A DNA stretch of 64,000 bases from a virus. The stretch lies in the UHGV virus genome UHGV-1352853. One strand, written 5' to 3'. The notes under the pieces are model-generated. The model was not told the DNA's origin, ran no database searches, and saw nothing but the letters and a program-made list of their open reading frames with translations. Within the stretch, counting starts at the first letter, position 1. Each line of letters begins with the position of its first letter. Positions 44,501 to 63,998 of this stretch are shown here, piece after piece. The position numbers were made by a program, and so were the translations under genes.

Positions 44501-44562
44501 ACACAGGCTTACTGTAGAGTAAGCTTCCTATATACGATATAAGTTTGAACAGGAAACATGCT

Positions 44563-47500
44563 ATGTCAACATTTGACCGTCTGGCAGGTTTCGCAGACAG
44601 CATCACTAATGCTAAGCAAGTCGATGTCTCTACTGCAACCTCTCAGAAGCAAGCTGCACAAGGGCAAAGCCCTTTCCAATTAACCCCGGAGAATGCTTAC
44701 AATCTCCAAACCGGACGAGTAGGTAATTTAGGAATCGGTGCGTTCGAACCAGGTTCTCTTCAGGCAGATTTCACTCAAGCCTCCCCATTAGAAATTCTTA
44801 ATAAATACGGTAATGAGCAAGGTCTACAGATTATTAATAGCCGAGCTAATGCTGCTGATGCTGTACGTCAAGACTTATCTAAACAACGTACTAACGCAGA
44901 AGCATTTGGCGATACTCTTTCTGGTGTTGGTCTTGGTGTTGCTAATACCCTTGGGGGCATTGCTGCTCTTGGCACAGGTCTGGTCAATGATAATGCCGGG
45001 GCATCCATTGCTTCTGGGATGGATTGGCTGAATGAAGGTGTACATAATCTACAGTCTGATGCATTGAATGCTACCCGTAAGGTTGTTCAGAATCAGAACC
45101 AGATTTCTGCACAAAAGAACCAGAAACTATACGAACAAGACATCAAAAATGGGGAGAGCAGTTTGGTTGCCTCCTTGTCTCGCATTGGTCGTGATGCTTT
45201 TGATTCTGTTGCTAATACACTTGATAACGGTATGGCTGCTACTGATGGGCTAAGTGAAGGTGTTGGTTCCCTCTTTACTGGTGGTCCACTTATCCGTGGT
45301 GTATCTGCACTCGGCAAAGTAATGGTAGGTGGTGATAAAGCCGTTAAGGGTATTACCTTAGCTGCTGAGTTAGGTTCTCGTCCTGCACAGGTTGCATTGT
45401 CTGCTGGTCGTGTTGCTGCACCTGCTATTGCAATTGGTGGTATGGAAGCTGGTGGTGCATACCAACAGACTGCTTCTGAAATCATGAAGATGTCACATCA
45501 AGAATTAGCAAGTAAGTCTCCTGTTTATCAACAACATATTGCTGATGGTTTATCTCCTGATGAAGCTCGTCGTCAGACTGCATCTGAAACAGGTATCATT
45601 GCTGCTGGCTTAACTGCTCCGGTTGCTGCTGCTACTGGTCCACTGGTATCTAAATTCGAACTTAATCCACTTAAGGTAGGCTCACTGGCTGGTGCAGGTT
45701 CTAACATGCTACGTGAGACTGTAGAAGAAGGTATCCAGTCTGGTACTAGTCAGTTTGCACAGAACAAGGCAATTCAGGGTAATGTAGATACTAAGCGTGA
45801 TTTGCTTAAAGGTGTTGGTGAACAAGCAGGTCTTGGTGCACTCTATGGCTTCGGTAGTGCTGGTGTTGCTCAGGCTCCAGGTGCAACTGTTAAAGCTGTT
45901 GATGCTGCTGCTGGGCCTGCTTTACGTACTACTCTGGCTGGTGCTTCCCTGGTTGGTAGTGCATTAGCAAAAGCTGCTTCCCCTATTACTAACATCCTGG
46001 TTCAACGTGGTGAAGAAGTAGCTAAGCGTAATGAACAAGCATCCCCTGTATCAGATGCTACGGTTAATGCTGCTGCGCAAGAAGCTACTGCTCAAGCAGA
46101 ACAAGCACAAGCAACCGTACAGGAAGCAGTAGATGCAATGGACATTTCCCCTGAAGAGAAAGCTGCTGCTACTCAGTATGCTGCTGATTTAACTCAAGCA
46201 ATGAAGTTTGACCCAGTAGAGCTAGAACAAGCTAATCCTGCAATCCGTGAAGCTGTTTCTGGTTCCACTAACCGTGTTGAAGCTATTCAGAAGATGGCTG
46301 ACCTGGTTAATACTGCTGAAGACCCTAACGTTCAAATGGAAGCTGCAATTCAGATGTATGACAACATCATGTCTATGGATAGCTTCATTAACCGTGACCC
46401 GGGTGCTCTGGCTAATCTGGAACAAGGTTCCCCTGCTGCTAATATTGTTGACCAGTTCTCTGGTCTAATGGCTAACGTACAGAATACTCCAAAGGTACTT
46501 CGTGCATTCCGTGCCATTCATTCCATGATTCAGGAACAGGCTGAAGCAGGTAAACTGAAAGCTACTGAAGAAGCCAACCAAGCCCAAGCAAACAATATTG
46601 CTATGGCTGCTGATATGTCTCCAGAAGTACTGGATGCAGACTCAGTGAACATGGTTCTGAAGCACGCAAGTGAAGGTAAGATTACGTTAGGGAATCGTCA
46701 GCGTGCTGCCCTGCAATCTGCTGCTGCTCTATTGCAAGGAGCACGAGAATTTGACGCTAAAGCAGAAGAACTGGGCTTACGTCCTCAGGACATTGTTAGT
46801 AAACAGATTAAAACCGACGAGTCTCGTTCTAATGAAGGTCAGTACTCTGCGTTGCAACATGCTAAACGCATTCGTTCTGCGTACAACTCTGGTAACTTCG
46901 ATTTGGCTTCCGCTTATCTCGACGACTTTATGAAGTTCGCCCAGCACATGCAGAATAAGGTCGGAGCGTTGAATGAGCATCTGATTTCGGGGAATGCGGA
47001 TAAGAATAAGTCTGTTCATTATCAGGCTCTTACTCCCTCCCGTGAATGGGTACGTAGTCGTACTGGCCTCGGTGTCAATCCGTATGATACCAAGTCGGTT
47101 AAGTTTGCCCAGCAAGTAGGACTGGAGGCCAAAACCGTAGCTGATATTGCTAACGCACTTGCTACGGCTTACCCGGAGCTTAATGTTTCTCATGTGAAAG
47201 TTACCCCATTGGATTCACGTCTGGACAAACCTGCTGCCCAGGTAGTTAAAGAGTTCCGTCAAGGTGGTCTTGATGCCACTCAATCTCAACAGACTAATGA
47301 ACCAGTGAATCAGGTTGATGAAACTCCTGTTACAAAACAGGAACCAGTTACCCCTACTGTACAGACTAAACCCTCTGTTAGTGAAGCTGTTAAAACAGAA
47401 CCTGCTATTAAAGAGTCTAAACCACAGGTTGTAAAAGAACCTGAGAATCAGTCTGAAAAACAGGATGCTACCCTCACTAATGAGGATACCACTCAGGGAG

Positions 47501-50500
47501 TAGCTGAAACTAAAACGGAAATGGAAACAGTGTTCCCTGTCTATAACAACGACAAGACACCGAACCAGTTCCTGAAATCTTTTACTCTACCGGAAGAACC
47601 TAAGTCTCGTACCATTGGTTCAGAGTCCCCTTTGACTGATGTTAAGAAAGCACTGTCTTCTGTTGCTCGCTTTGAAGCATTTACTCAAAAAGAAAATAAC
47701 GCTCTCACAAGTGATGTGATTAAGCGTTATCAGGACTTATTCGATTTTGGTGAAACTCTGAAGACTACCCTGTCTGACCGTCTAGCTAAGTTCCTTGCTA
47801 ACAAGAATGTTGGTAAACGCTTTGCAGAAGGTACTGAGGCTAACCGTTGGGTAGGTGGTAAGTTACTTAATATTGTAGAGAAAGATGGTGACACCTTTAA
47901 GTTCAATGACCAGTTATTAGAGACTGCTGTACTTGCTGGTCTGCAATGGCGACTGACTGCTACACAGAATGCTGCCATTAAAGACATGAAAGACGTAGCT
48001 GCTATTACTGGTGTAGAAGCATCCTTGTTACCTGATGGTATTCTGGCTGACTTTGAGAATGCTCAGACCCTGGTTGAAGCTACTAACTCACTGGCCCAAA
48101 AGATTGAATCTTACTGGGGTTTGAATCGTAATCCAAATGCACCACTGGGTTATACCAAAGGTATCCCAATGGCAATGGCTACAGAGATTCTGTCTTCTCT
48201 TATTGAGATGGGTGAAGTTAAAGAGTCTATGCTTGATGTGTCTGAGATTGACCCAGCCTCCAACAAGACTATTGGTCTATATACCATTGAGAAGCTGGAT
48301 GATAACGACGCCATTAATAATTTCCCTACTGCTATTGAGGAAGCTGTCCTCGTAGAACCAGAAGAGAAAATGTACTTTGGTGATGACATTCCTTCCGTGG
48401 CTCAAACTCAGTTACGTAACCCTGCTGTTAAGAATACCCCAGAGCAGAGGGCTGCATTGAAAGCTGAACAAGCTACCGAGTTCCGTGTACATATGCCGAT
48501 GGTTAACTTCTATGAAGCATTGGGTCGTGACAACATTCTGGAACTGATGGGTGCTGGTACTCTTAATCCTGAACTACTGAACGTGAATACCGCTAAATCA
48601 CTGGAAGGTAAGAACCTGTCCGTATCTATGGCATATGATTCCCTGTTTGGTGTAATCAATCAAATTAAGGAACAAGAGAACGGTCTGGATACCCCTATTC
48701 ATTACGGTTACAACATGACCCGTGTAGGTCGTATGCAGATGCTTGGTAAGAACAACCCACAATCCAGCAAGCTGGTTCGTGAGGCTATTCTGCCAACCTT
48801 CTCTACTATCGACTTGAGTAATGAAAACAGCCAAACGTTCTCTGACTTCCAGTTAGGTCTGGCTCAGGCATTAGGTATCAAGGTACATAACATGTCCCGT
48901 GAAGCTATGTCTGAAAAGTTGACCAAAGCTCTGGAAGGTAATCTGAAACCTGCTGTTGATATGATGGTTGAGTTTGATAAGTCTGGGCACTTACCTGCTG
49001 ATGCAGTAGATATTCTGAAGACGTCTCTTGGTGGCGATAAATCCTTCGTAGCTCTTATGGCTCTTATGGAATATGCCCGTTACCTGAACAGTGATGACCG
49101 TGCCAACTTTAATACCCCACTGTACGTTGAAGCCGATGGTGTAACTAACGGACCAATCAACGCAATGGTATTAATGACGGGTGGTAAGTTCACTTCAGAC
49201 TGGATTAAGAATACTGCTAAAGGTGGTCTATTCTTTGGTAAAGCTGGTAAGACTATGAACGAACATCGTTCACAGGATGACAGCGTGGATTTGTATGAAG
49301 CATCTACCAACGGTCTGCAACAAGCTCTGAATGAGTTACGTACTACTTACCGTAACAACGTTCCGGTTATGAACCAGATGAATCATCTCCAAAAGTTAAT
49401 GGACCTGTTCATTAAAGACTTTAACCTGAACGAAGACGGTACTCTGGACCTGAAACGTGGTATTGCTAAAAATCCTCTGACCATTACCATCTATGGTTCC
49501 GGTGCTCGCGGTATTGCTGGCAAGATGGTTAGTGCAATTACTGATACCATCTATGAACGCTTCAGTGACGTTCTGAAAGCACGAGCTGCTGACCCTAGCA
49601 TTTCCCCAGCTATGGCAATGTTTGGTAAGGAGGCTGCGTCTGAGGCTGATGCTCAGGCCATGCTGGATACTTTCCTTACATCTATGGAAGCACTGACTGG
49701 TAATGTTCCAGTTATGCGTAAAGGTGAGTTGTCTATTCAACAGGTAGAAGGTGCTCTGACTGGTAAGTTAGACCCTCAGAAGTTTACTGTATCTGGTAAT
49801 GCTTTGAAGAACTTACAAGAGAACATGCTTCACTTGTTCGTTGAACCAATGCGTACCGGTATCCGCAATACTGTTGGAGAAGGTCTGATGCATTCTACTG
49901 AGAACTTGCAGAAGGCTACCCAGATTCAGTCTCTGGTATTGCAGGATATGTTCCAACAAGCAGTACAGACTAAGCTGGCAGAAAAAGAAAAAGACCCAAC
50001 ATGGAAGAAGGGGGATTTCTTAACACAGAAAGAACTGAATGAAATCCAGGAATCATTATCTCCACTGGCTCCAATGATTGAGACTGGTTCACAGACTTTC
50101 TACATTGCCGGTAGTGAAAACACTGATGTTGCTAACCAAGTACTGGCTACCAACTTGGATGACCGTATGCGTGTGCCAATGAGCATCTATGCTCCTTCAC
50201 AGGCAGGTGTTGCAGGTATTCCATTTATGACCATTGGTACTGGCGATGGCATGATGATGCAGACCCTTTCTACTATGAAAGGTGCTCCGAAGAATACCCT
50301 GAAAATCTTTGATGGTATGAACATTGGTATCAATGACATCACTGATGCAAGTCGTAAAGCTAACGAGGCTGTATATACTTCCTGGCAGGGGAATCCTATC
50401 AAGAATGTTTATGACTCCTTCTCTAAGTTCATGAAGAATGTAGACTTCAGCAAACTGTCTGATGAAACTAAACAGGCTATCGCTAAGTCTGCTCTGGAAT

Positions 50501-53500
50501 ATGACCAGCGTGAAGGTGCTACTGATGCCTTATTACGTGCAGGTGCTGAACAGATTGAGCGTAACTTGCGTAACATTGCTCTTGGTGTAGATATTCGCCA
50601 TAAAGTAATGAACCAGGTACAGACCACTGTTGACCAGATGGCTGCTGTGGGTGCTCCTTACATTAATAACGGTAAGATTTCTTTGGAAGGTCTGACTGTA
50701 GACCAGCAAGTAGCTAAGCTGAACGAATTGTTTGATGCTGAATTAAACAAACGTCGTGATGCAGTACGTGCTGCTAAAGCAGAACCAGTGAAAGAAGTAC
50801 CAGCAATGGAGCAGGTTGGTCGTGTACTGAAGTCTGGTGTACGTCTGCTGTCTAATACTGCTATCTCTAAGCTGGCTAAAGAGATGTCTCAGGAACAACA
50901 AGCAGTACTGAAAGAAGTACAGAAATCCCTTGCTGCTAAAGACTACAAGGTTGTTTACGGTACACCTTCTCAGTTGGATGCTTATGCTATTGAGAAGAAT
51001 ATTACTCGCCCAGCACCTGAAGATATTGAAGCTGCTGAAGCAGGTAATGCATATGGCTGGACTAACTTTGAAGATAAGACTATCTACTTAGTTACTCCTT
51101 CCTTAGAGACTCTGGTTCATGAATTGGTACATGCTTCTACTTTTGAATCTGTACTGGCTCACTATGAGGGTACTCCTAATGAAGCAGTCCAGAATATTGA
51201 AGACCTGATGAACCAATTCCGTACTCTTGATGTTAAGGATGAAACTTCGGCAGTACGTGAAGCATACGCTGATGCTCTTAATACTATTAATGGTCACTTG
51301 TCTAATGGCTTCATTGAACCAGCAATGGCTAAAGCTGCTGCACTTAACGAGTACATGGCTTGGGGCTTAACCAACCGTGAACTGATTAGTAAGCAGAAGA
51401 AAACCACTGCACTTAAGACTATGGTTCAGGCTGTGTATGAAGCAATCAAGCGTCTGATATTTGGGCGTAAGAAAGCACCAGCTAATGCAGATGATATGTT
51501 CTCCGGCTTACTGTTTAACTCATCCGTAGTTATGCGTGGTCAGGCTCCTACTGCTGCTGTAGCTAAAGATACTACCCTGTTCCATAACAAAGCATACGGT
51601 GACAATACTCGTCTGGAAGAATTAGGAAAAACCTTCGATAAGTTAATTACTGACTACATTGGTTCAGAACCAGTACAACAAGTAATTCGTAAAGGTAAGT
51701 TCTCTGATGCAGTAGTGAATGCAACTAAAGTAACTCGTGATGTTCAGGCTCATGGCTTCACTATGAATATGCAGGAACAACGTCTCTTTACTAACATCGC
51801 TGCTGCTCTGGCTACTGAAGCTGCTATTAATCCTGCTGCTTTGGCTCGTGCACAGGAATACTATACGCATGTTACCAAGAACCTGACCGTTGAAGCATTC
51901 ATGACTGACCCAGATAGTACTAACCCTGCTGACCGTTATTACGCTCAACAGAAGTTCGATACCATCATGGGTGCTAACAATATTGAGTTTGATGCACAAG
52001 GCCGTTCTTCCTTACTACCTACCTTTGTCGGTCTGGCAATGGTAAGCGAAGAAGTACGTAAAGTACTGGCAGACATTCCTGTTATGAAAGCAGATAAGCA
52101 ATCTGGTAATACTGTTGATGCAATGCTTACTAACATCGGTACTGCTGCAATGGCTAGTCTGAATGCTCGTGTAGCTGGTGATACCAAGGCTACCAATGTG
52201 CAAGAAGGTATGGATGCACTGGCTCAGACAATCATGCAGACTAGTTTAAATGCACAGTCCTTCTATGATTCCGTTGCTACTCCTAGTGGTAATGCTATTG
52301 ACCGTGCTAACCAGTATCTGGTGGACTCTATTGATGTATTGTCTACCCGTGCTTTAGAAGGTGCTCGTGAAGTTGCAGCTAATACCAAGAACCCGTTGGT
52401 TAAAGGTGCTGCTCATGCTGCACAACTGATTGCTGCCATTGCTACGGAGAAGAATGGAGCAATCGTAGCTGAAGGTGTTATGGCTGCAATGAACCAGGGT
52501 AAAGTATGGCAACCTTTCCATGACCTGGTTAATGACTTAACTGGTCGTACTAAGAGCAATGCTTCTGTATACGATTTGATTAAGGCAGTACGTGCACAGG
52601 TACAGGCTGACCGTCAACAATTCCGTGAACATTTGCCTACCACTATCGCCTCTAAGTTCAGCCGTAAACTGACTAATGAAGAGTGGAAAGCAATGCATAC
52701 CGGTATGGGTAAAACTGACTTAGCTGCCCTGCGTGACACTATGTCTTTGGCTGAAATACGTGACCTGCTGACCGACCAGAAGATTGTTGACCGTGAGGTG
52801 AATAAGCTGGAAGCAGATTTGCAGAAACAAGCTGGACGTAACTGGCCTCTAATTAGTCGTAAATCTAAGCAACTGGCTCAGTACATGATTAATGGCACAG
52901 TTGGTAATAACCTGCTGCGTAATGCTACTGCAATTTCTCGTTTGCTGGGAGAACGTCAGGCTGCACGTTCTACTGTAGATGTAGCTCAACTGGACAAATT
53001 GATTACCCTGTATGCACTGGAAGCAATGAGTAAGTCTGACCGCGAAACATTATCTTCACTGGCTCAGACAGAAGTTGATGGAATGGACTTTGCTACATCT
53101 TATCTGGTTGGGCAGCGTAAAGATGAAATGGCTAAAGCCAAATCCGATACTCGTGCAATCCTGAACCAGTACAAAGGTTACATTCCTGATGAGACTAAAC
53201 AAGGTGTTAACCTGATTGTTGCTGAAGATAGTCAATTTGCTGATTTAATTGAGAAGTCTTATGTGCGACTGGGTACTTATCAGGGTAGCTCTGCTAATCG
53301 TGGTCCAGCACGCAGCTACTACTTTGCACCAGTACAGGCACAGGCTCCTTTCTCACAGGGTATTCTACAGAACGTTCGTAATACTGCTGGTGGTGTAGAC
53401 CTTGGTACAGGCTTTACGATGGGTACAATGGTAGCTGGTCGTATCACTGACAAGCCTTCCGTAGACCGTATCACTAAAGCACTGGCTCGTGGTGAACGTG

Positions 53501-54921
53501 GTAATGAACCACTGCTGCCTGTGTATGATGACAAAGGTAATGTAGTTGCCTATGAGCAATCTATTGACCCTAACATGCTGAAGCACATTGAGGGTGAGAA
53601 CCATCTTGCTCGTGCAATTGGTGTATGGCGTGGTCGTCAGGTAGAGGAAGCTAAGGCCCAGCGTTTCAACGATATGCTGATTGAAAATCTGCATAGCATG
53701 TACGAGAACGACATTAAAATGTCTGCCTCTAATAAGTCCCAGTACGTTAACCTTCTTGGTTCTAAACTGGACCCTGTAACTGCTGATGCCCTTAAACTGA
53801 TGAACACCGAAACACGTCAGAAAGCAGAAAGTCTGTTTGGCGAAGGTGAATTGTGGGTTCGTCGTGACATGCTTAATGATGCGCTGGGTTATCGTGCAGC
53901 TTCTGTAGGTGATGCCTGGTCTGGTAATTCTCGTTGGTCACCGGAAACATTGGATACCTTCAAGAAAGCTATGTTGGGTGTCTTTGGTAACCGTGCTTAT
54001 AAGTACGTAATGGGTGGTGAGAACCTGGTTCAGAACTTAGTTAAAGAAGCCAAGACACTGATTGTAGTTAAGTCAGTAGTTGTACCTGCTGTTAACTTCT
54101 TGGCTAACCTTTACCAGATGGTTGGTCGTGGTGTACCTGTTAAGAACATTGCTAAGAGCATTCCACAGAAGACTGCTGAGATTAACCAGTACCTGAAATC
54201 TCGTCTGCGTCAGGTAGATGCAGAAGCAGAATTACGTGCAGCTACTAACCCGAACCAGATTCGTAAGCTTAAGGCTGAGATTCAGTCCATAACTGATAGC
54301 CATAAGCGTATGAGTATCTGGCCTTTGTTAGAAGCTGGTGAGTTCTCTTCAATTGCAGACGCAGGTATTGGACGTGATGACATCCTTATTACTGAAGGTA
54401 AACTTCACGAATACATGGATAAGCTGGCTGATAAGTTACCTAAGTCTGTTCGTAATGCAGGTCGTTATGCACTTATCACCAAGGATACTGCTCTATTCCA
54501 GGGTATCCAGAAGACGGTTGAGTACTCTGACTTTATTGCTAAAGCAATCATTTATGATGACTTAACTCAGCGTAAAGGTAAGACTCGTGAAGAAGCACTT
54601 GGACGTGTAACAGAAGAGTTCATTAACTATGACCGTTTGCCTGGTCGTTTCCGTGGATATATGGAAAGTGTCGGTTTAATGTGGTTCTATAACTTTAAGA
54701 TACGTTCTGCAAAAATCGCAGTGTCCATGATTCGCAACAACCCTGTACATGCAGCTATGGCTATGTTGGCTCCAACTCCTACCATGTTTGGTAATGTTGG
54801 TTTACCTATTCAGGACAACATCTTCAGTATTGCTGCACAAGGCAATCTCGGTTACTCCTGGGGCTTTGGTCAGGGGCTTCGTGCTCACAACCTAAACCCT
54901 TGGATAAATCTGGTAAACTAA
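44563..54921 (+). CDS. virion-encapsidated RNA polymerase (N4 gp50-like vRNAP), about 3,452 aa from ATG 44563
   Basis: single 10.4-kb ORF unique to N4-like phages; central region has T7-like motif A EADGVTNGPINAMVLMTGG; AGGAAA SD before ATG 44563 (ORF-track start 44545 is TTG). Confidence 0.9.
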   Translation: MSTFDRLAGFADSITNAKQVDVSTATSQKQAAQGQSPFQLTPENAYNLQTGRVGNLGIGAFEPGSLQADFTQASPLEILNKYGNEQGLQIINSRANAADAVRQDLSKQRTNAEAFGDTLSGVGLGVANTLGGIAALGTGLVNDNAGASIASGMDWLNEGVHNLQSDALNATRKVVQNQNQISAQKNQKLYEQDIKNGESSLVASLSRIGRDAFDSVANTLDNGMAATDGLSEGVGSLFTGGPLIRGVSALGKVMVGGDKAVKGITLAAELGSRPAQVALSAGRVAAPAIAIGGMEAGGAYQQTASEIMKMSHQELASKSPVYQQHIADGLSPDEARRQTASETGIIAAGLTAPVAAATGPLVSKFELNPLKVGSLAGAGSNMLRETVEEGIQSGTSQFAQNKAIQGNVDTKRDLLKGVGEQAGLGALYGFGSAGVAQAPGATVKAVDAAAGPALRTTLAGASLVGSALAKAASPITNILVQRGEEVAKRNEQASPVSDATVNAAAQEATAQAEQAQATVQEAVDAMDISPEEKAAATQYAADLTQAMKFDPVELEQANPAIREAVSGSTNRVEAIQKMADLVNTAEDPNVQMEAAIQMYDNIMSMDSFINRDPGALANLEQGSPAANIVDQFSGLMANVQNTPKVLRAFRAIHSMIQEQAEAGKLKATEEANQAQANNIAMAADMSPEVLDADSVNMVLKHASEGKITLGNRQRAALQSAAALLQGAREFDAKAEELGLRPQDIVSKQIKTDESRSNEGQYSALQHAKRIRSAYNSGNFDLASAYLDDFMKFAQHMQNKVGALNEHLISGNADKNKSVHYQALTPSREWVRSRTGLGVNPYDTKSVKFAQQVGLEAKTVADIANALATAYPELNVSHVKVTPLDSRLDKPAAQVVKEFRQGGLDATQSQQTNEPVNQVDETPVTKQEPVTPTVQTKPSVSEAVKTEPAIKESKPQVVKEPENQSEKQDATLTNEDTTQGVAETKTEMETVFPVYNNDKTPNQFLKSFTLPEEPKSRTIGSESPLTDVKKALSSVARFEAFTQKENNALTSDVIKRYQDLFDFGETLKTTLSDRLAKFLANKNVGKRFAEGTEANRWVGGKLLNIVEKDGDTFKFNDQLLETAVLAGLQWRLTATQNAAIKDMKDVAAITGVEASLLPDGILADFENAQTLVEATNSLAQKIESYWGLNRNPNAPLGYTKGIPMAMATEILSSLIEMGEVKESMLDVSEIDPASNKTIGLYTIEKLDDNDAINNFPTAIEEAVLVEPEEKMYFGDDIPSVAQTQLRNPAVKNTPEQRAALKAEQATEFRVHMPMVNFYEALGRDNILELMGAGTLNPELLNVNTAKSLEGKNLSVSMAYDSLFGVINQIKEQENGLDTPIHYGYNMTRVGRMQMLGKNNPQSSKLVREAILPTFSTIDLSNENSQTFSDFQLGLAQALGIKVHNMSREAMSEKLTKALEGNLKPAVDMMVEFDKSGHLPADAVDILKTSLGGDKSFVALMALMEYARYLNSDDRANFNTPLYVEADGVTNGPINAMVLMTGGKFTSDWIKNTAKGGLFFGKAGKTMNEHRSQDDSVDLYEASTNGLQQALNELRTTYRNNVPVMNQMNHLQKLMDLFIKDFNLNEDGTLDLKRGIAKNPLTITIYGSGARGIAGKMVSAITDTIYERFSDVLKARAADPSISPAMAMFGKEAASEADAQAMLDTFLTSMEALTGNVPVMRKGELSIQQVEGALTGKLDPQKFTVSGNALKNLQENMLHLFVEPMRTGIRNTVGEGLMHSTENLQKATQIQSLVLQDMFQQAVQTKLAEKEKDPTWKKGDFLTQKELNEIQESLSPLAPMIETGSQTFYIAGSENTDVANQVLATNLDDRMRVPMSIYAPSQAGVAGIPFMTIGTGDGMMMQTLSTMKGAPKNTLKIFDGMNIGINDITDASRKANEAVYTSWQGNPIKNVYDSFSKFMKNVDFSKLSDETKQAIAKSALEYDQREGATDALLRAGAEQIERNLRNIALGVDIRHKVMNQVQTTVDQMAAVGAPYINNGKISLEGLTVDQQVAKLNELFDAELNKRRDAVRAAKAEPVKEVPAMEQVGRVLKSGVRLLSNTAISKLAKEMSQEQQAVLKEVQKSLAAKDYKVVYGTPSQLDAYAIEKNITRPAPEDIEAAEAGNAYGWTNFEDKTIYLVTPSLETLVHELVHASTFESVLAHYEGTPNEAVQNIEDLMNQFRTLDVKDETSAVREAYADALNTINGHLSNGFIEPAMAKAAALNEYMAWGLTNRELISKQKKTTALKTMVQAVYEAIKRLIFGRKKAPANADDMFSGLLFNSSVVMRGQAPTAAVAKDTTLFHNKAYGDNTRLEELGKTFDKLITDYIGSEPVQQVIRKGKFSDAVVNATKVTRDVQAHGFTMNMQEQRLFTNIAAALATEAAINPAALARAQEYYTHVTKNLTVEAFMTDPDSTNPADRYYAQQKFDTIMGANNIEFDAQGRSSLLPTFVGLAMVSEEVRKVLADIPVMKADKQSGNTVDAMLTNIGTAAMASLNARVAGDTKATNVQEGMDALAQTIMQTSLNAQSFYDSVATPSGNAIDRANQYLVDSIDVLSTRALEGAREVAANTKNPLVKGAAHAAQLIAAIATEKNGAIVAEGVMAAMNQGKVWQPFHDLVNDLTGRTKSNASVYDLIKAVRAQVQADRQQFREHLPTTIASKFSRKLTNEEWKAMHTGMGKTDLAALRDTMSLAEIRDLLTDQKIVDREVNKLEADLQKQAGRNWPLISRKSKQLAQYMINGTVGNNLLRNATAISRLLGERQAARSTVDVAQLDKLITLYALEAMSKSDRETLSSLAQTEVDGMDFATSYLVGQRKDEMAKAKSDTRAILNQYKGYIPDETKQGVNLIVAEDSQFADLIEKSYVRLGTYQGSSANRGPARSYYFAPVQAQAPFSQGILQNVRNTAGGVDLGTGFTMGTMVAGRITDKPSVDRITKALARGERGNEPLLPVYDDKGNVVAYEQSIDPNMLKHIEGENHLARAIGVWRGRQVEEAKAQRFNDMLIENLHSMYENDIKMSASNKSQYVNLLGSKLDPVTADALKLMNTETRQKAESLFGEGELWVRRDMLNDALGYRAASVGDAWSGNSRWSPETLDTFKKAMLGVFGNRAYKYVMGGENLVQNLVKEAKTLIVVKSVVVPAVNFLANLYQMVGRGVPVKNIAKSIPQKTAEINQYLKSRLRQVDAEAELRAATNPNQIRKLKAEIQSITDSHKRMSIWPLLEAGEFSSIADAGIGRDDILITEGKLHEYMDKLADKLPKSVRNAGRYALITKDTALFQGIQKTVEYSDFIAKAIIYDDLTQRKGKTREEALGRVTEEFINYDRLPGRFRGYMESVGLMWFYNFKIRSAKIAVSMIRNNPVHAAMAMLAPTPTMFGNVGLPIQDNIFSIAAQGNLGYSWGFGQGLRAHNLNPWINLVN

Positions 54922-54958
54922 AATAAAAAAGCCCCTCATTAGAGGGGCTTTACTTTTA
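54921..54958. terminator. bidirectional intrinsic terminator between convergent vRNAP and minus-strand operon
   Basis: AAGCCCCTC-ATTA-GAGGGGCTT 9-bp stem with A-run upstream and T-run downstream. Confidence 0.7.
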
Positions 54959-55384
54959 GAATCTTTCAATCCGTTTATTGAGTACATATAGATATGAACC
55001 CATGGCTTGATGCTGTAACCCAAGCAGATACTTATCCTCTGGTTCAATTTCACGAGATTTGGGGCTTAGTAAGAAATTACCTAAAGCTTCATACTTCTCT
55101 TTTAGATTATCTCTTTCTGTTAATACTTGTACTTGCTCTGCTGTAAAAGATTTAGTCATGTTTACCCACATTTTAGGTTTACGCCCTTCACTTGGAAATT
55201 TACCAGTCTCTTTGATCTTCCTTAGTGTTTCTTCAGAAGGGAACCACAGGAAGGAGAAGTAAAGTTTCTTAGCTACGTAACGAGTTACACCCAGTTTCTC
55301 TGCAATTTCATCGAATGAATATGTACGAACGGTATTGTTGAGAATGGCTTCACGAACAACAGAGGTAATAGATACTTGTGTCAT
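54956..55384 (-). CDS. HTH DNA-binding protein (142 aa)
   Basis: helix-turn-helix FDEIAEKLGVTRYVAKK. Confidence 0.45.
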   Translation of the reverse strand: MTQVSITSVVREAILNNTVRTYSFDEIAEKLGVTRYVAKKLYFSFLWFPSEETLRKIKETGKFPSEGRKPKMWVNMTKSFTAEQVQVLTERDNLKEKYEALGNFLLSPKSREIEPEDKYLLGLQHQAMGSYLYVLNKRIERF

Positions 55385-55394
55385 GCTATTTTCC

Positions 55395-55895
55395 TTACAG
55401 AATTACCCAGTCTTCTGCTAATACATCTGATTGGGATGGAACCCAAGGCATAAACTGGTCATCAACAGTTTTGATTCCCAACCATGGACAAGGTTTCAAT
55501 TCATCAGCAAATCCTGGACGCTCTAAGCTACTGCTATTCCATTCCTGAGCAGCAACGTACTCAATGTACATTCCTTTACCATTCCATCCTTTACGGACTA
55601 GTTTGAAGCCTGATTTAAGAAGCTCTACTGCATGACCAAAGGTACAACCTTTTTTCGTGTCACGATATGCCCCTTCAAATGCAGATTTTGGTGACCAGCT
55701 AATATAGCCACGGAACTGAGGATGGTTGGACTTAGAGTCTGGGTACTCAACTAAGTAACCTTCTTCTAGATGGTCTTCATCTGCTGGTACATCCCAGCCA
55801 CGAAGTTTGCAGTATGTTCCTTTACTCATCGGAAAACCATATACACACTTGGTTCCGATGTAATTGGTAAAATGGACTTTAATTTCTTCTGACAT
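55395..55895 (-). CDS. DUF2829 (Tad2-like) domain protein (start trimmed to ATG 55895)
   Basis: C-terminal LKSGFKLVRKGWNGKGMYIEYV...FMPWVPSQSDVLAEDWVIL matches DUF2829/Tad2 signature (KxxRxxWNGKxMYxx...PWxxSQxDxLAEDWxI); GAGGT SD before ATG 55895. Confidence 0.6.
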   Translation of the reverse strand: MSEEIKVHFTNYIGTKCVYGFPMSKGTYCKLRGWDVPADEDHLEEGYLVEYPDSKSNHPQFRGYISWSPKSAFEGAYRDTKKGCTFGHAVELLKSGFKLVRKGWNGKGMYIEYVAAQEWNSSSLERPGFADELKPCPWLGIKTVDDQFMPWVPSQSDVLAEDWVIL

Positions 55896-56039
55896 AACTA
55901 CCTCAAATGATAAAGCCCTCACTAGGAGGGCTTGTTTTGCTTTGGCTTCTAGAGCCTTACCACATGTCGGGTAGTTCTGTACCTTTCGGTGAAAACTACC
56001 ATATACCTGTTTGCTAAATGGTGCAACCACCACTAACTT

Positions 56040-56288
56040 TTATTTAGAATATTGCCCTTTCGTATACTCAATGAAGTATCCGAACTTAGCTTCATACTCT
56101 GTAGGGGAATGTTTGCTTACATGGTGTTTAGCCATACTAAGTAATTCCTTTTCCAACTTATTTACATTGATTGTATCTGCTGTTTCCCCAATAGGGAACT
56201 TATGATGGTAAGCTGGTTCAGAAGTAATTTTTCCGCTTTTAGCTAAAACTTTAACGGAAGCAAACCCAACTTTAGGGTCTATATCCAT
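56040..56288 (-). CDS. hypothetical protein (82 aa)
   Basis: ORF. Confidence 0.4.
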   Translation of the reverse strand: MDIDPKVGFASVKVLAKSGKITSEPAYHHKFPIGETADTINVNKLEKELLSMAKHHVSKHSPTEYEAKFGYFIEYTKGQYSK

Positions 56289-56710
56289 TAGATTTTACAG
56301 CCCCCACCCCCGCACTCATTGTTTTCCAGGAAGCCCTTCAGCATTTCTTGGCTCTGAGCTTGCTCATGCAGATTCTGCTTAAGCAGGTAACCTTCCAGTA
56401 ACCAGACCTTATCGATTGCATTTTCATAGGCAATCTTACGCCCAATTTCTTCGTTGAAGTTTTCCGGGGATGCACAGGCAGACTCACCAGTAACAGTGAA
56501 ACCATTCTCCAGAACCAGTACACAGAAAGTCAGCAGAGATAGTGACTGTACTTCCTGGTTCTTAATGGTTGCTAAGTCTGGTAGTACAGATGCTGCACCA
56601 TCCAGGCCAGTAAAGAAGTAAGTACCAAGTACTTTACTCTTGATGTGGTCAGGGGTAATGCGTGGAGCTTTATCAGCACCAGCTTCTTTAATCTGTTGTT
56701 CGAGTTCCAT
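56288..56710 (-). CDS. conserved phage protein (start trimmed to ATG 56710; ORF-track TTG at 56737)
   Basis: motif LTFCVLVLENGFTVTGESACASPENFNEEIGRKIAYENA typical of a widespread phage family (Gp49-like, tentative); GAGGAA SD. Confidence 0.45.
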   Translation of the reverse strand: MELEQQIKEAGADKAPRITPDHIKSKVLGTYFFTGLDGAASVLPDLATIKNQEVQSLSLLTFCVLVLENGFTVTGESACASPENFNEEIGRKIAYENAIDKVWLLEGYLLKQNLHEQAQSQEMLKGFLENNECGGGGCKI

Positions 56711-56734: not shown

Positions 56735-56774
56735 CAAATAAAAAAGTCCCCCAGAGGGGCGGCTCTAGGGGACT
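56735..56774 (-). terminator. intrinsic terminator downstream of tRNA cluster
   Basis: AGTCCCC...GGGGACT stem followed on minus by UUUUUUAUUUG. Confidence 0.55.
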
Positions 56775-57016
56775 TAGTACTATTTACCCATAGCTGGGAG
56801 GCTTTTGGTTCTTACCACGAAGACAGTCCACGCTGACTAGGCTTGGGATTGATAGTCCCGTTCCTGTGGTAATTACTCAGGCTAGGATTTAAGGAGTTCC
56901 TATTCTCCAGCGAAATTCCCGTCGAGGGGAATAACAATACAATAGCAGTCACTGGACTGTCTTACCAGTGTTGTCTTTAGAGTGCAATGCAATCAGGACT
57001 ATGTTACTGCTGAATG

Positions 57017-57092
57017 GGTGTCCACTACTGGATTTGAACCAGTGACTTTCCGATTATTAGTCAGTTGCTTTCCCCGTCTAAGCTAAGTGGAC
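57017..57092 (-). tRNA. tRNA (canonical cloverleaf; anticodon loop CUAAUAA, anticodon AAU read as Ile, uncertain)
   Basis: acceptor GTCCACT/AGTGGAC, D-stem GCTT/AAGC, T-arm ACTGG-TTCAAAT-CCAGT, U33 and A37 in place; anticodon stem has one mismatch. Confidence 0.6.
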
Positions 57093-57098
57093 TTATTA

Positions 57099-57174
57099 TG
57101 GTTACCCAGGCAGGATTCGAACCTGCGTCCTAGTTGGTTTACTAGTGGGGCTTTTCCACTAAGCCTACTGGGTA
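57099..57174 (-). tRNA. tRNA (76 nt, encoded CCA; anticodon arm non-canonical, 6- or 8-nt loop)
   Basis: acceptor TACCCAG/CTGGGTA, D-stem GGCT/AGCC, T-arm GCAGG-TTCGAAT-CCTGC, CCA; anticodon region CTAGT-AAACCA-ACTAG does not give 7-nt loop. Confidence 0.55.
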
Positions 57175-57459
57175 TTAATAGGGGAGTCATGCCAGGCTTT
57201 AACTGGCTCCTTCTTCGCAATCCTTACATACCCCTACATAATTATTGCGTTAAGCTTTTTTGTTTAAGTTTAAGTGAAGGCGTTCTTGCTGACTCATAAT
57301 AGAGTGGGCGTTTGACGAATGACTAGTTCGTTACTACCCGTTTGCCATAAGTACCTGGCGACTTTGGTTTGAGGTGGGAGTCCGAGTCCTGTACAGCCTT
57401 ACCGTTCACACATTGGCAGCGTATCTAGAATTGCACTTCCGGCAACTGGATTTAACTGT

Positions 57460-57750
57460 TACACCTCAAATAGGCAGTGGGGGATGGAATCGAACCATCA
57501 GTATTAAGTCTTATTCGTGCACCAAGCACGCTAGTAGATTACTCTACCGGAGGGAATCGAACCCTATCTACTTCACCAGACCCACCATAATTCTTCCAAT
57601 TTAGAGTAGCACTGTCACGGTGGGTGCTTTAAATGCCGGGAAACATTTAAATATACAATGCTACTTTGAATTGGTTATCAGTGAAGGATTCGAACCTCCG
57701 GTTGGAGTCTATAGCTTACCGCAGCAGCCCTCCAATCTAGCGGTGTCACA
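57460..57750 (-). ncRNA. three further tRNA-like elements (conserved GGTTCGAATCC-type T-arms) whose acceptor/anticodon arms I could not fold canonically
   Basis: T-arm motifs at about 57474-57490, 57544-57560, 57676-57692 on minus strand; CCA-like ends; likely tRNAs or tRNA pseudogenes. Confidence 0.35.
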
Positions 57751-57787
57751 CTTAGTCCAAACTTGAACATGTCAAGCCATCTCGTGC

Positions 57788-57854
57788 AACTGATAATTGG
57801 TTCCGGCGTCTGGACTCGAACCAGAACACTCACGTTTGTGCACAACGCTAGTAC
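57788..57854 (-). tRNA. short (67 nt) tRNA-like gene with truncated D-arm, anticodon loop GUGCACA (GCA, Cys?) and encoded CCA
   Basis: acceptor TCCGGTG/CGCCGGA (one G-U), T-arm TCTGG-TTCGAGT-CCAGA, anticodon stem GCGTT/AACGT; D-arm reduced to about 9 nt. Confidence 0.4.
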
Positions 57855-58054
57855 CTACACCGGAATTAATTGCCAGGGATTCCACCTGGCTCCATCTGTT
57901 TTTATAGTCACTCAGATATCGTCTGGACTTGTTGTGGTAGCCGGTACTGAACTCCGGCATAAGGCGCTTATTCGGCGGCGTCGAGCTTGCTTATTCGCTT
58001 GAGCCATCCTCGTGAGTCAGCCACGTCCCACTGCGCATCAGCCTGCACATTCAC

Positions 58055-58453
58055 CACAACGGAAAGAGCACTGATGCGCTCACTTGGGACTCCTTAGCCA
58101 TAACCCACGGGCTTCTGGTACACCAATGTTCTTACCTGTTGTGTGTTGTGGAGTGACGCACCATCTCACTCTTGAATGTTAACCCATCCCCAGCCCCACA
58201 ACATATGCTACGGTTAAGATTATTGCGTATGCTGTATGGTCTTGCTGATCACAACGGTAAGAGCACTGCTGCAACAATGTTGGATTTGGTATGCTAAGCC
58301 AGTCAACATTCAGTACTCTTGCCTGTTGTCTTCCCCGTTTCTAATACACGGACGGGGACACTCCATAAAACTATCAAAGAGTGCACTATTGCTCTCACTT
58401 GGGACTACTTAGCCCTAATCCGCAGACTTTGGGTACAGTAATGCACTCATTGT
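58055..58453. repeat. three imperfect direct copies of a ~75-nt element (CACAACGG[A/T]AAGAGCACTG.TGC ... CTCACTTGGGACT.CTTAGCC) in ORF-free region
   Basis: copies at 58055-58130, 58250-58300 (partial), 58375-58453; seen directly in sequence. Confidence 0.6.
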
Positions 58454-59168
58454 TAGGATGTCATAATAGGGGAGGGAGGACAAGTCTCCCTTTACCCTAT
58501 GATTTAGTTTACATGTAAGACCTAACATCCCGGTGTTGGATGAATAGCGTAATGATCTATCCGACATTATTGGTTAATGTTGTGCTCAACACGAGCGTTA
58601 GTTGATAAGGGATCTGAAGCCTTATCCCAAAGATACTAACCTTTGGGATATAGCCTAAGATTCAGAAATGGCCCCTATAGGGAGAGGCCATTGATTAACC
58701 CGAATGTTGCTTTACATTTTCTGTGAAAACCCGTTCTTAAAATAGTCTGTCTGACGGATGGGGGGCCACCCCTAGCGTCAGTGCCATACGGCAAAGATTA
58801 AGTTAAGAAAGGTTATGATAGGAGTTCCTATCTCAAAGGATTCTAGCAGAACCATTTACGATATTAACTACTCACTAAGAAACAATTTATTTTCTAGAGC
58901 AGACTCTATACCCAAGAAAGGGCTAACTTTTCCGTTTAGTTTCGGTTGAACCAATGGACTGGGGAGAGTATTCCAATCCACTGGTTCGGTTGTTGTTGTT
59001 ACTCTGGCGGCTTGTCACCACCGTGTTTACCACTGCATTTCCACAGGATAATGACAGTGATGATAAAAGCTATGTATGGAGCCGACACGTCTATAATCCT
59101 GACTAGTAGTAGCATCAGGACTATAAACACTACCACACCTAGCAGCAGCTTCTGAGCCACCTACCAGA

Positions 59169-59612
59169 TTAACTACGTTTAAGGCCAGCGAACAGTGAAG
59201 GCTTAGTAGCAGGTTTCTCTGCTGGTTCGTCAGCCTTAACTTCTTCCTGCACAACTTCTTCTTGTGCTCCTGGTTCAGTCACTGCTTCTTCTTCAGGTTC
59301 CGGCGTAGAACTCTCGTTCTGACCACCAGTAGAGGTCTGGGTTTCTTCTTCCTTTGCCTCTTCAACCACTTCTTCCGGTTCCGGTTCTACCGGACGGTGT
59401 TTAGCTTCCTGTGGGTTCTTACGAGAACGACGTGTCTTCTTCTCTACCAAGGGTGGAGTATCATCGTTATGACTTACCTCTTCATTAATACCAACGGAGG
59501 CTGTGCCGTCTGCATTGATGACAATACTAACATCACCAGCAAGATTGATTTGATCATCGACATAAGCCTGTACAGCAGCTTCTACTTCGGACTGGTTCAA
59601 AATGATTTGCAT
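59169..59612 (-). CDS. acidic low-complexity protein (147 aa)
   Basis: Glu/Pro-rich C-terminal half; synteny with N4 middle genes. Confidence 0.45.
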   Translation of the reverse strand: MQIILNQSEVEAAVQAYVDDQINLAGDVSIVINADGTASVGINEEVSHNDDTPPLVEKKTRRSRKNPQEAKHRPVEPEPEEVVEEAKEEETQTSTGGQNESSTPEPEEEAVTEPGAQEEVVQEEVKADEPAEKPATKPSLFAGLKRS

Positions 59613-61814: not shown

Positions 61815-63998
61815 TTATTTGCCAGCGTAGCGTTTAGCCACGGTGACCATTACGGTTGCATTCAATTCATCATCTGGTAATGGATTAGCCAGTTTCTTAT
61901 TGAATGTGTGGACGGCTTGTTGTACTTGAGCAAAGTCCCAACCACTGTCAACCAATGCCAGTGCGTACTTAATCATTTGATTATTACGATTACCGGAGGC
62001 AATACGACTAGCGAACCAACGCTCCAGATTATCCAGCGACTGTACTTCCTTCATCTGGTTCTGGAACTGCTCGTTCTTACTAGTACGAGGAATAAAGTCA
62101 CGCACATCTAACAGATTTGCATCAAGGTTATAATGATAAGAACCAGTCTCACAAGACATCCACTTCTTGGCTCGTTGGTTAGCTGACTCATCCGTTTCGA
62201 ATGGTAGCCAAGCCATAACGTTATTCATGAACTCTTTATATTCCTCAGAGTCGAGGTGTAACTCATAGTTCATTGGAATAATCAGACGAAAGCGGTTCTC
62301 TTCATCAGTATGACGCTTGGTGGTATAGGTCATGAACTTATATTCCTTCATCAGTTCATGGCACGTATGCAGAGGTACTCCACCATCACAGTCAATAACA
62401 ATCATGTTAAATCCTGGGATAACATTCTCTTCAGAACGATGCCCATTCTTCATGTGATGGTTTACCCAGTGCATACCGGGAGCTTGGGTTAATACATGCA
62501 ACTGATCGAACGGTACACGTTCACCAATGTAGTCATAAGCAAAGCTATCACTATACGCCACAATCATCTCATTGATGTCAGTCTCTTTAAGAGTTTCACC
62601 ACGGAAGAACTCAATACCCTCATTGAAGGTCTTCTTAATGATGATGTGCTGTTTGTAACCCCATGCTGTAGCAAGAGTCATCATCTCATTGCGAGCTGCA
62701 TTACCACTCTTATAGAAAGGCAACGACTCCAGTAAGTCAGCATGAGTTACTTCTTTCCCTACAGAAGCAATATACTTAGCCAGCTTCACATAAGCTTTCT
62801 CACGATTTAGGATTGTCTGGAATGCTGCCCCAGATTCCTCTACAAGCAGAATTGCTTGTTTAAGATGAGCCATCTCAATGAATGAACTCTGGTCAACAAA
62901 TGCCAGTGCACCTGCCAACTTAAGTGCTTTAAAATAACGGTGAGAAATTTCAGCTTTACGAATATCTTCATGGTCAGCCATAGCTTCTGCTTGTTTCTCA
63001 CAATCAATTTTGTAAGTAATCAGAGCAATACCCACTGCATCTTCCACAATCATCTTAAAGCCAAACAAGTTTGGATCAGCCAGACTATGGAAGTGGTTAG
63101 CCCACTTACCCAGAGACTGAACGTTATCCTGCTTAATCAGGTTACGGTAGATTTCTTCTGGAGTTAGCGTTGCATGCGCTCGCTTGTCTAAATGCCCAAT
63201 GGCAAACAGACAACGACGTGCATATCCTGTATCAAGGAAATCATAGAACTGGTCTTCAGTCTGACCACCATCCAGTAGCTTACTTGGTGTACCAAACAGC
63301 AGCAGGTTAGTTGGAGTTTTGCCATCTAATTCTTCGCCACGAACGCTTTCAGCAGTATTCTTGGTTAGCTTCTGTTTTACTTTTCCCTGGTCATATAACT
63401 CTAGGAACAAGGTTAGTACATCCATGTTAGCCAGCAGGTTCGAACCAATTTCATCAATCTGAAGATTGATTGAACCACACCCAGCCATTAATAATTTATG
63501 ACGTAGTTGTTTAACTGCTGGTGGAGTACCTGAGTCAAACGTAAACGGATACGCCCCGGCACGTTTATACTCTGCTTCAACTTTATCGAACTCATCATTC
63601 TGGTCCGTACCCTGACGAGCAGCACGTTCGTTAGCAATCTTCCACAAACGGTCATTTGCAATGACGGGCATGGTGTCTTCCATAAAACGCTTACGGAAGC
63701 CAGTCATAAACCCGTCTTCGATAATATTTACTGAGTGGCCCTTACCGAAACCAGATGTAGCCAACGCTATAGCGTAGATGTTTACCGGCAGGTCACCACG
63801 GTCTTTAGTTACAATGGTTGCACCCATGCAGGATGCCATTTTAGCCAAGAAGTAGGCTACTTCGACACGGAAGAATCCCCGATCGTTATTCTGAGTTTTG
63901 TTACACAGCACATCCACAATTTCTTCAATTGCTTGGTGGTGTGTGACTCCGGTAAGGTCAATACTCATGATGGAAAATATCTCTCTCTTTGTTTGCAA
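61815..63998 (-). CDS. DNA primase-like replication protein (N4 gp43 position)
   Basis: 727 aa vs about 728 aa in N4; synteny only, no motif confirmed. Confidence 0.4.
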   Translation of the reverse strand: MQTKREIFSIMSIDLTGVTHHQAIEEIVDVLCNKTQNNDRGFFRVEVAYFLAKMASCMGATIVTKDRGDLPVNIYAIALATSGFGKGHSVNIIEDGFMTGFRKRFMEDTMPVIANDRLWKIANERAARQGTDQNDEFDKVEAEYKRAGAYPFTFDSGTPPAVKQLRHKLLMAGCGSINLQIDEIGSNLLANMDVLTLFLELYDQGKVKQKLTKNTAESVRGEELDGKTPTNLLLFGTPSKLLDGGQTEDQFYDFLDTGYARRCLFAIGHLDKRAHATLTPEEIYRNLIKQDNVQSLGKWANHFHSLADPNLFGFKMIVEDAVGIALITYKIDCEKQAEAMADHEDIRKAEISHRYFKALKLAGALAFVDQSSFIEMAHLKQAILLVEESGAAFQTILNREKAYVKLAKYIASVGKEVTHADLLESLPFYKSGNAARNEMMTLATAWGYKQHIIIKKTFNEGIEFFRGETLKETDINEMIVAYSDSFAYDYIGERVPFDQLHVLTQAPGMHWVNHHMKNGHRSEENVIPGFNMIVIDCDGGVPLHTCHELMKEYKFMTYTTKRHTDEENRFRLIIPMNYELHLDSEEYKEFMNNVMAWLPFETDESANQRAKKWMSCETGSYHYNLDANLLDVRDFIPRTSKNEQFQNQMKEVQSLDNLERWFASRIASGNRNNQMIKYALALVDSGWDFAQVQQAVHTFNKKLANPLPDDELNATVMVTVAKRYAGK

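Follow-up and report, generated by a model that had tools for sequence, protein, structure and literature searches.

Proteins of the Tad2 family have been shown experimentally to sequester a range of signaling molecules, including 1''–3' glycocyclic ADP-ribose (gcADPR), histidine-ADP-ribose (His-ADPR), N7-cyclic ADP-ribose (N7-cADPR), cyclic dinucleotides, and cUMP/cCMP. These ligands divide by defense: 3'cADPR is the signal of type I Thoeris, His-ADPR of type II, and N7-cADPR of type IV, while the dinucleotides belong to CBASS and cUMP/cCMP to Pycsar. The proteins Tad3–Tad8 are of the protein-binding kind and bind ThsB/ThsA. In N4-like phages, the interval from the primase-polymerase gene to the gene for virion RNA polymerase (vRNAP) has been described as an anti-signaling hotspot with Tad2, Tad3, Acb4, and Sequestin (Fedorova et al. 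2026, bioRxiv 10.64898/2026.06.04.730250). Here we consider a minus-strand gene of the UHGV virus genome UHGV-1352853, contained in a 64,000-nucleotide stretch of DNA that was analyzed whole (the window). The sequence of this gene and the predicted structure of its product make it probable that it encodes a Tad2-family counterdefense sponge for the ADP-ribose (ADPR)-derived signals of Thoeris. The protein has a Tad2-like domain at its C terminus and a second domain (the N-domain) in front of it. The gene and its parts are as follows.

55395..55895, minus strand: two-domain Tad2-like coding sequence, 166 residues plus stop codon, with its ATG at 55895 (from the list of open reading frames, or ORFs, and the sequence)
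55398..55646, minus strand: Tad2-like (DUF2829) domain, residues 84–166 (from Pfam, PDB sequence matches, and Foldseek)
55656..55895, minus strand: N-domain, residues 1–80 with a conserved core at ~10–78 (from homology to the N-domain of RyR Tad, gp68 of phage CB1)
55900..55904, minus strand: Shine-Dalgarno-like GAGGT, 4 nucleotides upstream of ATG 55895 (read from the sequence)
55913..55933, minus strand: hairpin with an 8-bp stem and a 5-nucleotide loop, AAGCCCTC-CTAGT-GAGGGCTT (from a scan for terminator-like hairpins)

The C-terminal ~85 residues of the protein contain the motifs KGWNGKGMY ... PWVPSQSDVLAEDWVIL. A preliminary description of this locus, made from the letters of the DNA, had recognized these motifs as those of DUF2829 and had proposed a profile search and a comparison with Tad2 structures as checks. 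Both bear the proposal out. PF11195 (Tad2-like, formerly DUF2829) matches with an E value of 8.8e-24 and a score of 84.3 bits against a cutoff of 25, and the alignment covers residues 85–165 of the 166-residue form and profile positions 2–72 of 73; as a sequence match, this is far above chance. A phmmer search of the PDB returned ModTad2 (9EIB/8V3E) at an E value of 8e-20 and SPO1 Tad2 (8SME/8WJE) at about 3e-14 to 4e-14, with AcrIIA7/HgmTad2 and SptTad2 as weaker matches. An AlphaFold2 monomer model of the protein, built on 45 homologs, has a predicted local distance difference test score (pLDDT) of 87.5, and its C-terminal half superposes on 8SMF/8SMG/8WJE/8V3E/9EIB (Foldseek E values of 2e-7 to 2e-6). 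Target-normalized template modeling scores of the predicted C-terminal domain against Tad2 structures are 0.7–0.9, with a maximum of 0.90. The model contains the elements of the Tad2 fold, namely an N-terminal helix, an antiparallel sheet, and short helices in the loops. Automated labels in GenBank/RefSeq already call this protein or its orthologs DUF2829 or Thoeris anti-defense 2-like.

The ligand pocket of the family can be followed residue by residue. In the original Tad2 paper, the gcADPR contacts of SPO1 Tad2 are W25, N26, I63, T65, D67, H71, W73, S76, T78, and D79. In the HMMER alignment, these map to W104, N105, I141, T143, D145, M149, W151, S154, S156, and D157, such that 8 of the 10 contacts are identical, one is a conservative substitution (T78S), and one is changed (H71M). 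We predict from this alignment that the signal-binding pocket is formed by W104, N105, I141, T143, D145, W151, S154, S156, and D157. Across an alignment of 45 two-domain homologs reaching down to 46% identity, W104, N105, G106, P150, W151, Q155, D157, D162, and W163 are invariant, and conservation reaches 90% or more at K142, T143, and S154. The invariance of pocket residues down to 46% identity suggests that the ligand pocket is under purifying selection. Strands two and three are separated by an insertion that, by comparison, is hypervariable in sequence and length, both in this alignment and against the ortholog in phage N4, gp49. In HgmTad2 and ModTad2, the corresponding region makes up a second pocket, and, as judged by sequence, it is diversifying.

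We take ATG 55895 to be the real start of this gene. The minus-strand ORF, which is convergent with the vRNAP gene, is 212 residues long if its earliest start, GTG 56033, is used and 166 residues long from ATG 55895. The preliminary description had preferred this ATG for its GAGGT Shine-Dalgarno sequence and had pointed out that the longer N terminus runs through a hairpin, and it was right on each count: GAGGT is found at 55900–55904, and the 8-bp hairpin at 55913–55933 is real and sits in the 144-nucleotide spacer 5' of the gene, within the extension that the GTG start would add. IME11, Moonfish, 24-32N, and N4 have orthologs with annotated lengths of 160–166 residues. N4 gp49 begins with MEIKVHF right at the stop codon of gp48, where a 46-codon GTG extension has no room. 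The ATG is therefore chosen because of the GAGGT, the ortholog lengths, the start of N4 gp49, and the hairpin in the extension, and the 212-residue form from GTG 56033 is rejected, as the orthologs start at the ATG, N4 lacks the room, and the hairpin lies inside the extension. The family phrog_872 of PHROGs covers the full length of the 166-residue protein with an E value of 3.9e-64. As for the hairpin itself, its appearance is that of either a weak terminator or a hairpin that stabilizes RNA. Several hairpins form in the spacer as a whole (55896..56039, minus strand), and its fold is more stable than those of shuffled sequences; the RNA fold of 55885–56045 has a z score of −2.98, with 1 of 200 shuffles folding as well. 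No Rfam match was found for the spacer; its role could lie in regulation or processing, or it could act as a weak terminator.

The extra region of ~75 residues that had been noted ahead of the Tad2-like domain is a separate domain of ~75–80 residues. In the AlphaFold2 model, it folds confidently as a unit of its own, with a pLDDT of 93–97 over residues ~10–78, and the monomer shows strands at residues 10–13, 17/18–24, 45–51, and 64–69, a short strand at 78–79, and two helices. Its consensus reads yiGtK...A.pM.R..YN..RGW..P.dEn..d.GYLVEY...N.....GYiSWSPk.vFe.aY. No Pfam or NCBIfam family covers the N-domain, no PDB sequence matches it even at an E value of 10, and when the full model was compared with the PDB by Foldseek, every match was a Tad2 structure and none was for this domain. 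Profile comparison leads instead to RyR Tad, gp68 of phage CB1, whose N-terminal domain (gp68_N, residues 1–86) aligns with the N-domain at an hhalign probability of 96.1% (E 3.3e-9, 63 columns). Likewise, hmmsearch matches residues 1–65 of gp68 with 25.5 bits (E 5e-10 for a single comparison), and a Foldseek search of BFVD with the N-domain model finds an RyR-domain protein of Yersinia phage TG1 (E 6.4e-5). By sequence and by model, the N-domain is homologous to the RyR Tad N-domain and thus has a known fold. In the crystal, gp68_N is a domain-swapped dimer in which β1 from the partner protomer completes a five-stranded sheet (10.64898/2026.06.04.730250). That description is compatible with the strands of the N-domain, and a swap of this kind is invisible in monomer models. 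By analogy, a self-associating module on sponge domains is the best-supported role for the N-domain.

The N-domain is widespread and is joined to sponges in many arrangements. A profile search of 1.84 billion cluster representatives, clustered at 50% identity, recovered 2591 clusters at E ≤ 1e-3 and 1300 at E ≤ 1e-10, and the domain is recorded in 124 phage records. Among the best 150 clusters, Pfam recognizes Tad2-like domains in 45, crAss001_48 (PF21825) in 45, Phage_gp49_66 (PF13876) in 15, and Acb2_Tad1_hairpin in 4. By our own domain parsing of these 150, the N-domain may be N-terminal, C-terminal, or between two domains, as in the triple fusion of Acb4, N-domain, and Sequestin. Its fusion partners span five sponge families: Tad2, Sequestin, Acb4, Acb2/Tad1-hairpin, and RyR-type sponges. 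Whatever the partner, ~27 of the ~72 N-domain positions are at least 90% conserved across the 150 cluster representatives. Stand-alone N-domain proteins account for 8 of the best 150 clusters, and one such gene was checked on its contig. We also observed that 43 of the 150 best representatives carry a partner of more than 45 residues that matches no Tad2, Sequestin, Acb4, or RyR Tad C-terminal domain; these partners could be further sponge or anti-defense domains. Three known proteins were considered as identities for the N-domain and set aside. Lockin is unlikely, as it is reported to be absent from INPHARED isolate genomes, whereas the N-domain is present in those 124 phage records, and Acb5 is unlikely, being found mostly in actinophages and having a catalytic R10/W38/H61, with both set apart by description only; the native N-terminal extension of HgmTad2/AcrIIA7 is unrelated to the N-domain in sequence.

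These observations can be assembled into a proposed mechanism. The C-terminal domain (residues ~84–166), which is predicted to fold like SPO1 Tad2 and ModTad2, would form a homotetramer by analogy with those proteins, with pockets between its protomers. These pockets would hold the small alarm molecules that the TIR-domain (Thoeris) proteins of bacteria produce, and capture of the signal would mean that the Thoeris effector is never switched on, an anti-Thoeris effect that we infer would operate in vivo. The likeliest class of ligand would be the ADPR-derived Thoeris signals, that is, 3'cADPR/1''–3' gcADPR, His-ADPR, or both. The hypervariable insertion may supply a second pocket for another nucleotide, as in HgmTad2 and ModTad2. 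The N-domain (residues ~1–80), presumably a domain-swapped dimer, would act as a self-associating module attached to the sponge domain.

Which ligand such a sponge would bind can be approached through the Tad2 proteins that have been tested, using the sequences and phenotypes in Table S2 of an 84-sponge screen (bioRxiv 10.1101/2025.08.24.671296). Within this panel, the nearest relative of the domain is ModTad2 (46% identity, 79 bits), which inhibits type II Thoeris and Pycsar, followed by SPO1 Tad2 (41%, 64 bits), which inhibits type I. It is thus possible, if doubtful, that the sponge mechanism is the same and the ligand is a different one, namely His-ADPR of type II Thoeris and/or cUMP/cCMP, or CBASS dinucleotides held through the insertion, instead of 3'cADPR. 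The wide ligand plasticity of the Tad2 family is in keeping with such a shift, as is the presence here, in hypervariable form, of the insertion that makes the second pocket of HgmTad2 and ModTad2. The canonical gcADPR contacts of SPO1 Tad2, however, are almost all kept, and the motif that follows the conserved tryptophan points the other way. This motif is SQSD in the window protein, with Q155 invariant in the two-domain subfamily. An S-Q-x-D sequence occurs in the six type I inhibitors with a canonical motif (SPO1, HgmTad2, Tad2_70, _71, _82, and _83) but the three type II-only inhibitors have other sequences there (ModTad2, SVSD; Tad2_68, SIGD; Tad2_76, SSSD); the divergent type I/IV inhibitor Tad2_79 lacks such a motif. 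The association of S-Q-x-D with phenotype is a correlation in a small sample, not a mechanism. Because nearest-neighbor identity and the S-Q-x-D motif give conflicting hints in so small a sample, we do not choose a single ligand; judged by sequence, a Thoeris-type ADPR-derived signal is the most likely.

Several further points weigh against a Tad2 sponge directed at Thoeris. The closest characterized homolog, ModTad2, is no inhibitor of type I Thoeris, its ligands being His-ADPR and cUMP/cCMP, and two pocket positions of the window protein (H71 to M and T78 to S) are unlike SPO1 Tad2. A literature search found no experiment on this protein, on N4 gp49 (for which it found no functional study), or on any fusion of an N-domain to Tad2, and the 18 Tad2 homologs in the screen of bioRxiv 10.1101/2025.08.24.671296 each consist of a single domain, none with an N-domain. 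In SPO1 Tad2, helix α1 mediates tetramerization, and the linker that joins the N-domain to this helix is short, so the oligomeric state could differ here. In the same screen, at least three tested homologs (Tad2_69, _73, and _78) inhibited none of seven systems, and membership in the Tad2 family is therefore no guarantee of activity. These inactive homologs would also fit a decayed or repurposed Tad2 fold that has a structural or regulatory role, or none, and no anti-signaling activity. We regard this as improbable: with pocket residues that do not vary in the subfamily even at 46% identity, the ligand site shows the mark of purifying selection; N4, IME11, Moonfish, and 24-32N all carry the gene in the corresponding place, and the protein occurs in many more Escherichia coli N4-like phages; and the gene is embedded among other sponge genes. 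Some GenBank records label homologs or their neighbors 'Anti-CRISPR protein', and AcrIIA7 has the same DUF2829 domain. An anti-CRISPR of the AcrIIA7 type is nonetheless very improbable, because AcrIIA7 (HgmTad2) has since been shown to be a sponge for gcADPR and cyclic dinucleotides and its binding to Cas9 was never demonstrated; moreover, the E. coli and Shigella hosts carry type I CRISPR-Cas and are not known to carry type II.

A different question is whether the protein has two targets, with the N-domain being an independent anti-defense module, either one more sponge, for a further signal, or a domain that binds an immune protein of the host. The conservation described above is what would be expected of such a module: it holds irrespective of the partner and includes K16, R32, W34, E40, E50, N57, W67, and Y77, as well as a long, confidently modeled loop (RGW..P.dE). 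The fusion of the N-domain, in any order, to Tad2, Sequestin, Acb4, Acb2/Tad1-hairpin, and RyR-type sponges is the same signature of attachment to known sponges that revealed Sequestin, and stand-alone N-domain genes exist, which a scaffold and nothing more would hardly account for. On the other hand, the RyR Tad N-domain alone is inactive against type I Thoeris (10.64898/2026.06.04.730250), although that member is divergent, lacks the RGW, PADEN, and NH motifs, and is reported for type I only. In addition, the N-domain is acidic on average (mean net charge of −3.3), whereas published sponge pockets are positively charged. We consider dual function unlikely on balance. Still, its conservation, its free-standing copies, and its association with sponge domains mean that the N-domain might have an anti-defense activity of its own. 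For the protein as a whole, a Tad2-family sponge for Thoeris signals, with the N-domain as its self-associating module, is the reading that we prefer.

The surroundings of the gene are those of the hotspot of N4-like phages. The DNA around it shares 94% identity with Escherichia phage IME11 (Schitoviridae, Gamaleyavirus), and the window is a Gamaleyavirus-like relative of N4. The neighboring features are as follows.

44545..54921, plus strand: vRNAP, a 3458-residue ORF (annotated as vRNAP in IME11)
54928..54951, minus strand: strong terminator-like hairpin, 10-bp stem and T-run, between the four-gene cluster and the convergent vRNAP gene
54956..55384, minus strand: 142-residue ORF with a phrog_9565 half and a Sequestin half (from PHROGs and Pfam)
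56040..56288, minus strand: 82-residue conserved protein (phrog_29724)
56288..56710, minus strand: Acb4-family homolog, 140 residues, ATG at 56710 (PF13876, E 2.4e-30)
56744..56775, minus strand: strong terminator-like hairpin, 13-bp stem and T-run, directly upstream of the Acb4-like gene
57017..57092, minus strand: tRNA-Ile, anticodon AAT
57099..57174, minus strand: second tRNA (Rfam tRNA, 39.9 bits; irregular anticodon loop in ARAGORN)
61815..63998, minus strand: primase (PriCT_1)

The locus thus lies between primase and vRNAP genes, in the hotspot position. Going toward vRNAP, the minus-strand order is primase, an AAA_24 (N4 gp44-type) protein, homologs of single-stranded DNA-binding protein, gp46, and gp47 (the last three assigned by synteny), an ORF-poor stretch with the tRNAs, and then the Acb4-like gene, the 82-residue gene, the Tad2-like gene, and the Sequestin ORF. 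Acb4 (PF13876), Tad2 (PF11195), and Sequestin (PF21825) are in this way represented by three adjacent sponge-family genes within 1.8 kb. The two strong hairpins bracket the four-gene cluster, which suggests that it is a separate transcription unit; the hairpin at 54928..54951 could also terminate the convergent vRNAP gene. Coverage of the locus in 55 related phage genomes is patchy, with only 2 records covering at least 80% of it, and close relatives carry different sets of genes in this interval, as a hotspot would predict. PADLOC and NCBIfam returned nothing meaningful for the four proteins of the locus.

PF13876 is the Acb4 sponge family (bioRxiv 10.1101/2024.12.30.630793), and PF21825 is the Sequestin sponge family, which was found through its fusion to Tad2 and Acb4 (bioRxiv 10.1101/2025.07.12.664507). 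The Acb4 homolog of the window matches the Acb4 structure 9E4W in the PDB (E 7.7e-5) and is 58% identical to N4 gp48. A preprint reports that the Acb4 homolog of phage N4, taken here to be gp48, binds c-di-AMP and triggers PanDA defense. The computed ORF extends to TTG 56737, a start that is probably wrong; IME11_21 is annotated with 140 residues, in agreement with ATG 56710. We also note that the protein ends in a conserved Cys/Gly-rich tail (..CGGGGCKI). On the other side of the Tad2-like gene, residues 84–141 of the 142-residue ORF (about 54962..55135) are a PF21825 Sequestin domain (E 2.3e-15), and the N-terminal half is phrog_9565. In DNA alignment, this ORF corresponds to two overlapping genes in IME11, Moonfish, and 24-32N, and a 1-nucleotide deletion near 55161/55162 fuses them in the window. 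The fused ORF keeps the internal ATG of the Sequestin part. The fusion could be natural or a sequencing error.

The preliminary description had placed the Tad2-like gene beside a helix-turn-helix protein and a small conserved phage protein. The latter holds, in that the 82-residue protein is conserved; the former does so only in part, as the phrog_9565 half is weakly helix-turn-helix-like (E 0.15–0.2) and the C-terminal half is clearly Sequestin. The orthology to N4 gp49 and the existing annotation, the setting among Acb4 and Sequestin neighbors in the hotspot, and the widespread fusions of the N-domain had escaped it. The 82-residue gene is present in IME11 and 24-32N and absent at this locus in Moonfish and N4; its product has no Pfam, NCBIfam, or PADLOC match and is a candidate anti-defense protein because it is sited between the Acb4-like and Tad2-like genes. 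Two further observations concern the flanks. The ORF-poor stretch, ~2.4 kb (56740..59170) inside the hotspot, has a similar unannotated gap as its counterpart in IME11 and N4. The vRNAP ORF as computed starts at a TTG and has 3458 residues, compared with about 3450 for the IME11 gene, and its translation probably begins instead at an ATG that follows within a few codons (..MNRKHAMSTF..).

By itself, the Tad2 assignment is routine, adding one more member to a family with thousands of homologs at a published hotspot. What the locus offers is a two-domain Tad2 beside Acb4 in N4, which is a model phage, and in its E. coli relatives, together with Sequestin in this phage, and hence a tractable system for learning how several sponges cooperate and how they expose a phage to the sponge-sensing defenses Panoptes and PanDA. 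The N-domain is a hub that links five sponge families. Since the reasoning from fusion to sponges is what uncovered Sequestin, the N-domain and its unassigned partners are leads for counterdefense functions, and an anti-defense activity of the N-domain itself would be the only mildly novel point of the locus. Phage therapy makes use of N4-like phages, and their host range is easier to predict once it is known which signaling defenses they can disarm.

Among described proteins, the nearest counterpart is N4 gp49 (YP_950527.1, 'DUF2829 domain-containing protein'), an ortholog with 73% identity over its full length and the same two-domain architecture. It occupies the same position, after the Acb4 homolog and before the convergent vRNAP gene. 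Its Tad2 insertion differs in sequence and is 4 residues shorter than that of the window protein, and the N4 interval lacks the 82-residue gene and the Sequestin-domain gene, both of which are in the window. Of the characterized sponges, SPO1 Tad2 (Gp34.65; 8SME/8SMF/8SMG/8WJE) is the founding gcADPR sponge and inhibits type I Thoeris. The window domain has the same predicted fold, 41% identity (64 bits), and an insertion of similar length, but SPO1 Tad2 is a single 89-residue domain, to which the window protein adds an N-terminal domain of 80 residues. ModTad2, from a Myroides odoratus prophage (8V3E/9EIB), sequesters His-ADPR, is an inhibitor of type II Thoeris, and has cUMP/cCMP as further ligands. 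It is the closest characterized sequence (46% identity, 76–79 bits), with an insertion of similar length; it too is single-domain, and it reads WTPSVSD where the window protein reads WVPSQSD. HgmTad2/AcrIIA7 (8KBI-8KBM, 9KZR) has the DUF2829 domain, binds gcADPR, and carries a native N-terminal extension. That extension (~46 residues) is unrelated to the N-domain of the window protein, and the HgmTad2 insertion, which forms the cGG/cGAMP pocket, is about twice as long.

RyR Tad, gp68 of Pectobacterium phage vB_PatP_CB1, pairs the same N-domain family with a C-terminal sponge and is found in the same hotspot of an N4-like phage. Its sponge is all-helical and RyR Repeat12-like, not Tad2, and RyR Tad is a dimer; its C-terminal RyR-like domain binds gcADPR (10.64898/2026.06.04.730250). 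The N-domain of RyR Tad is the more divergent, without the RGW, PADEN, and NH motifs, which hardly vary in the subfamily of the window protein. Fused sponges such as Acb4-Tad2 of Pasteurella phage Pm86, Tad2-Sequestin, and Acb4-Sequestin of Pseudomonas phages YH6 and Ab09 (gp59) follow the same principle of a sponge with a second module. In those fusions both halves are known sponges, whereas in the window protein only the Tad2-like half belongs to a known sponge family and its partner is the N-domain. The three sponge families that are combined in these fusions, Acb4, Tad2, and Sequestin, appear in the window as separate, adjacent genes.

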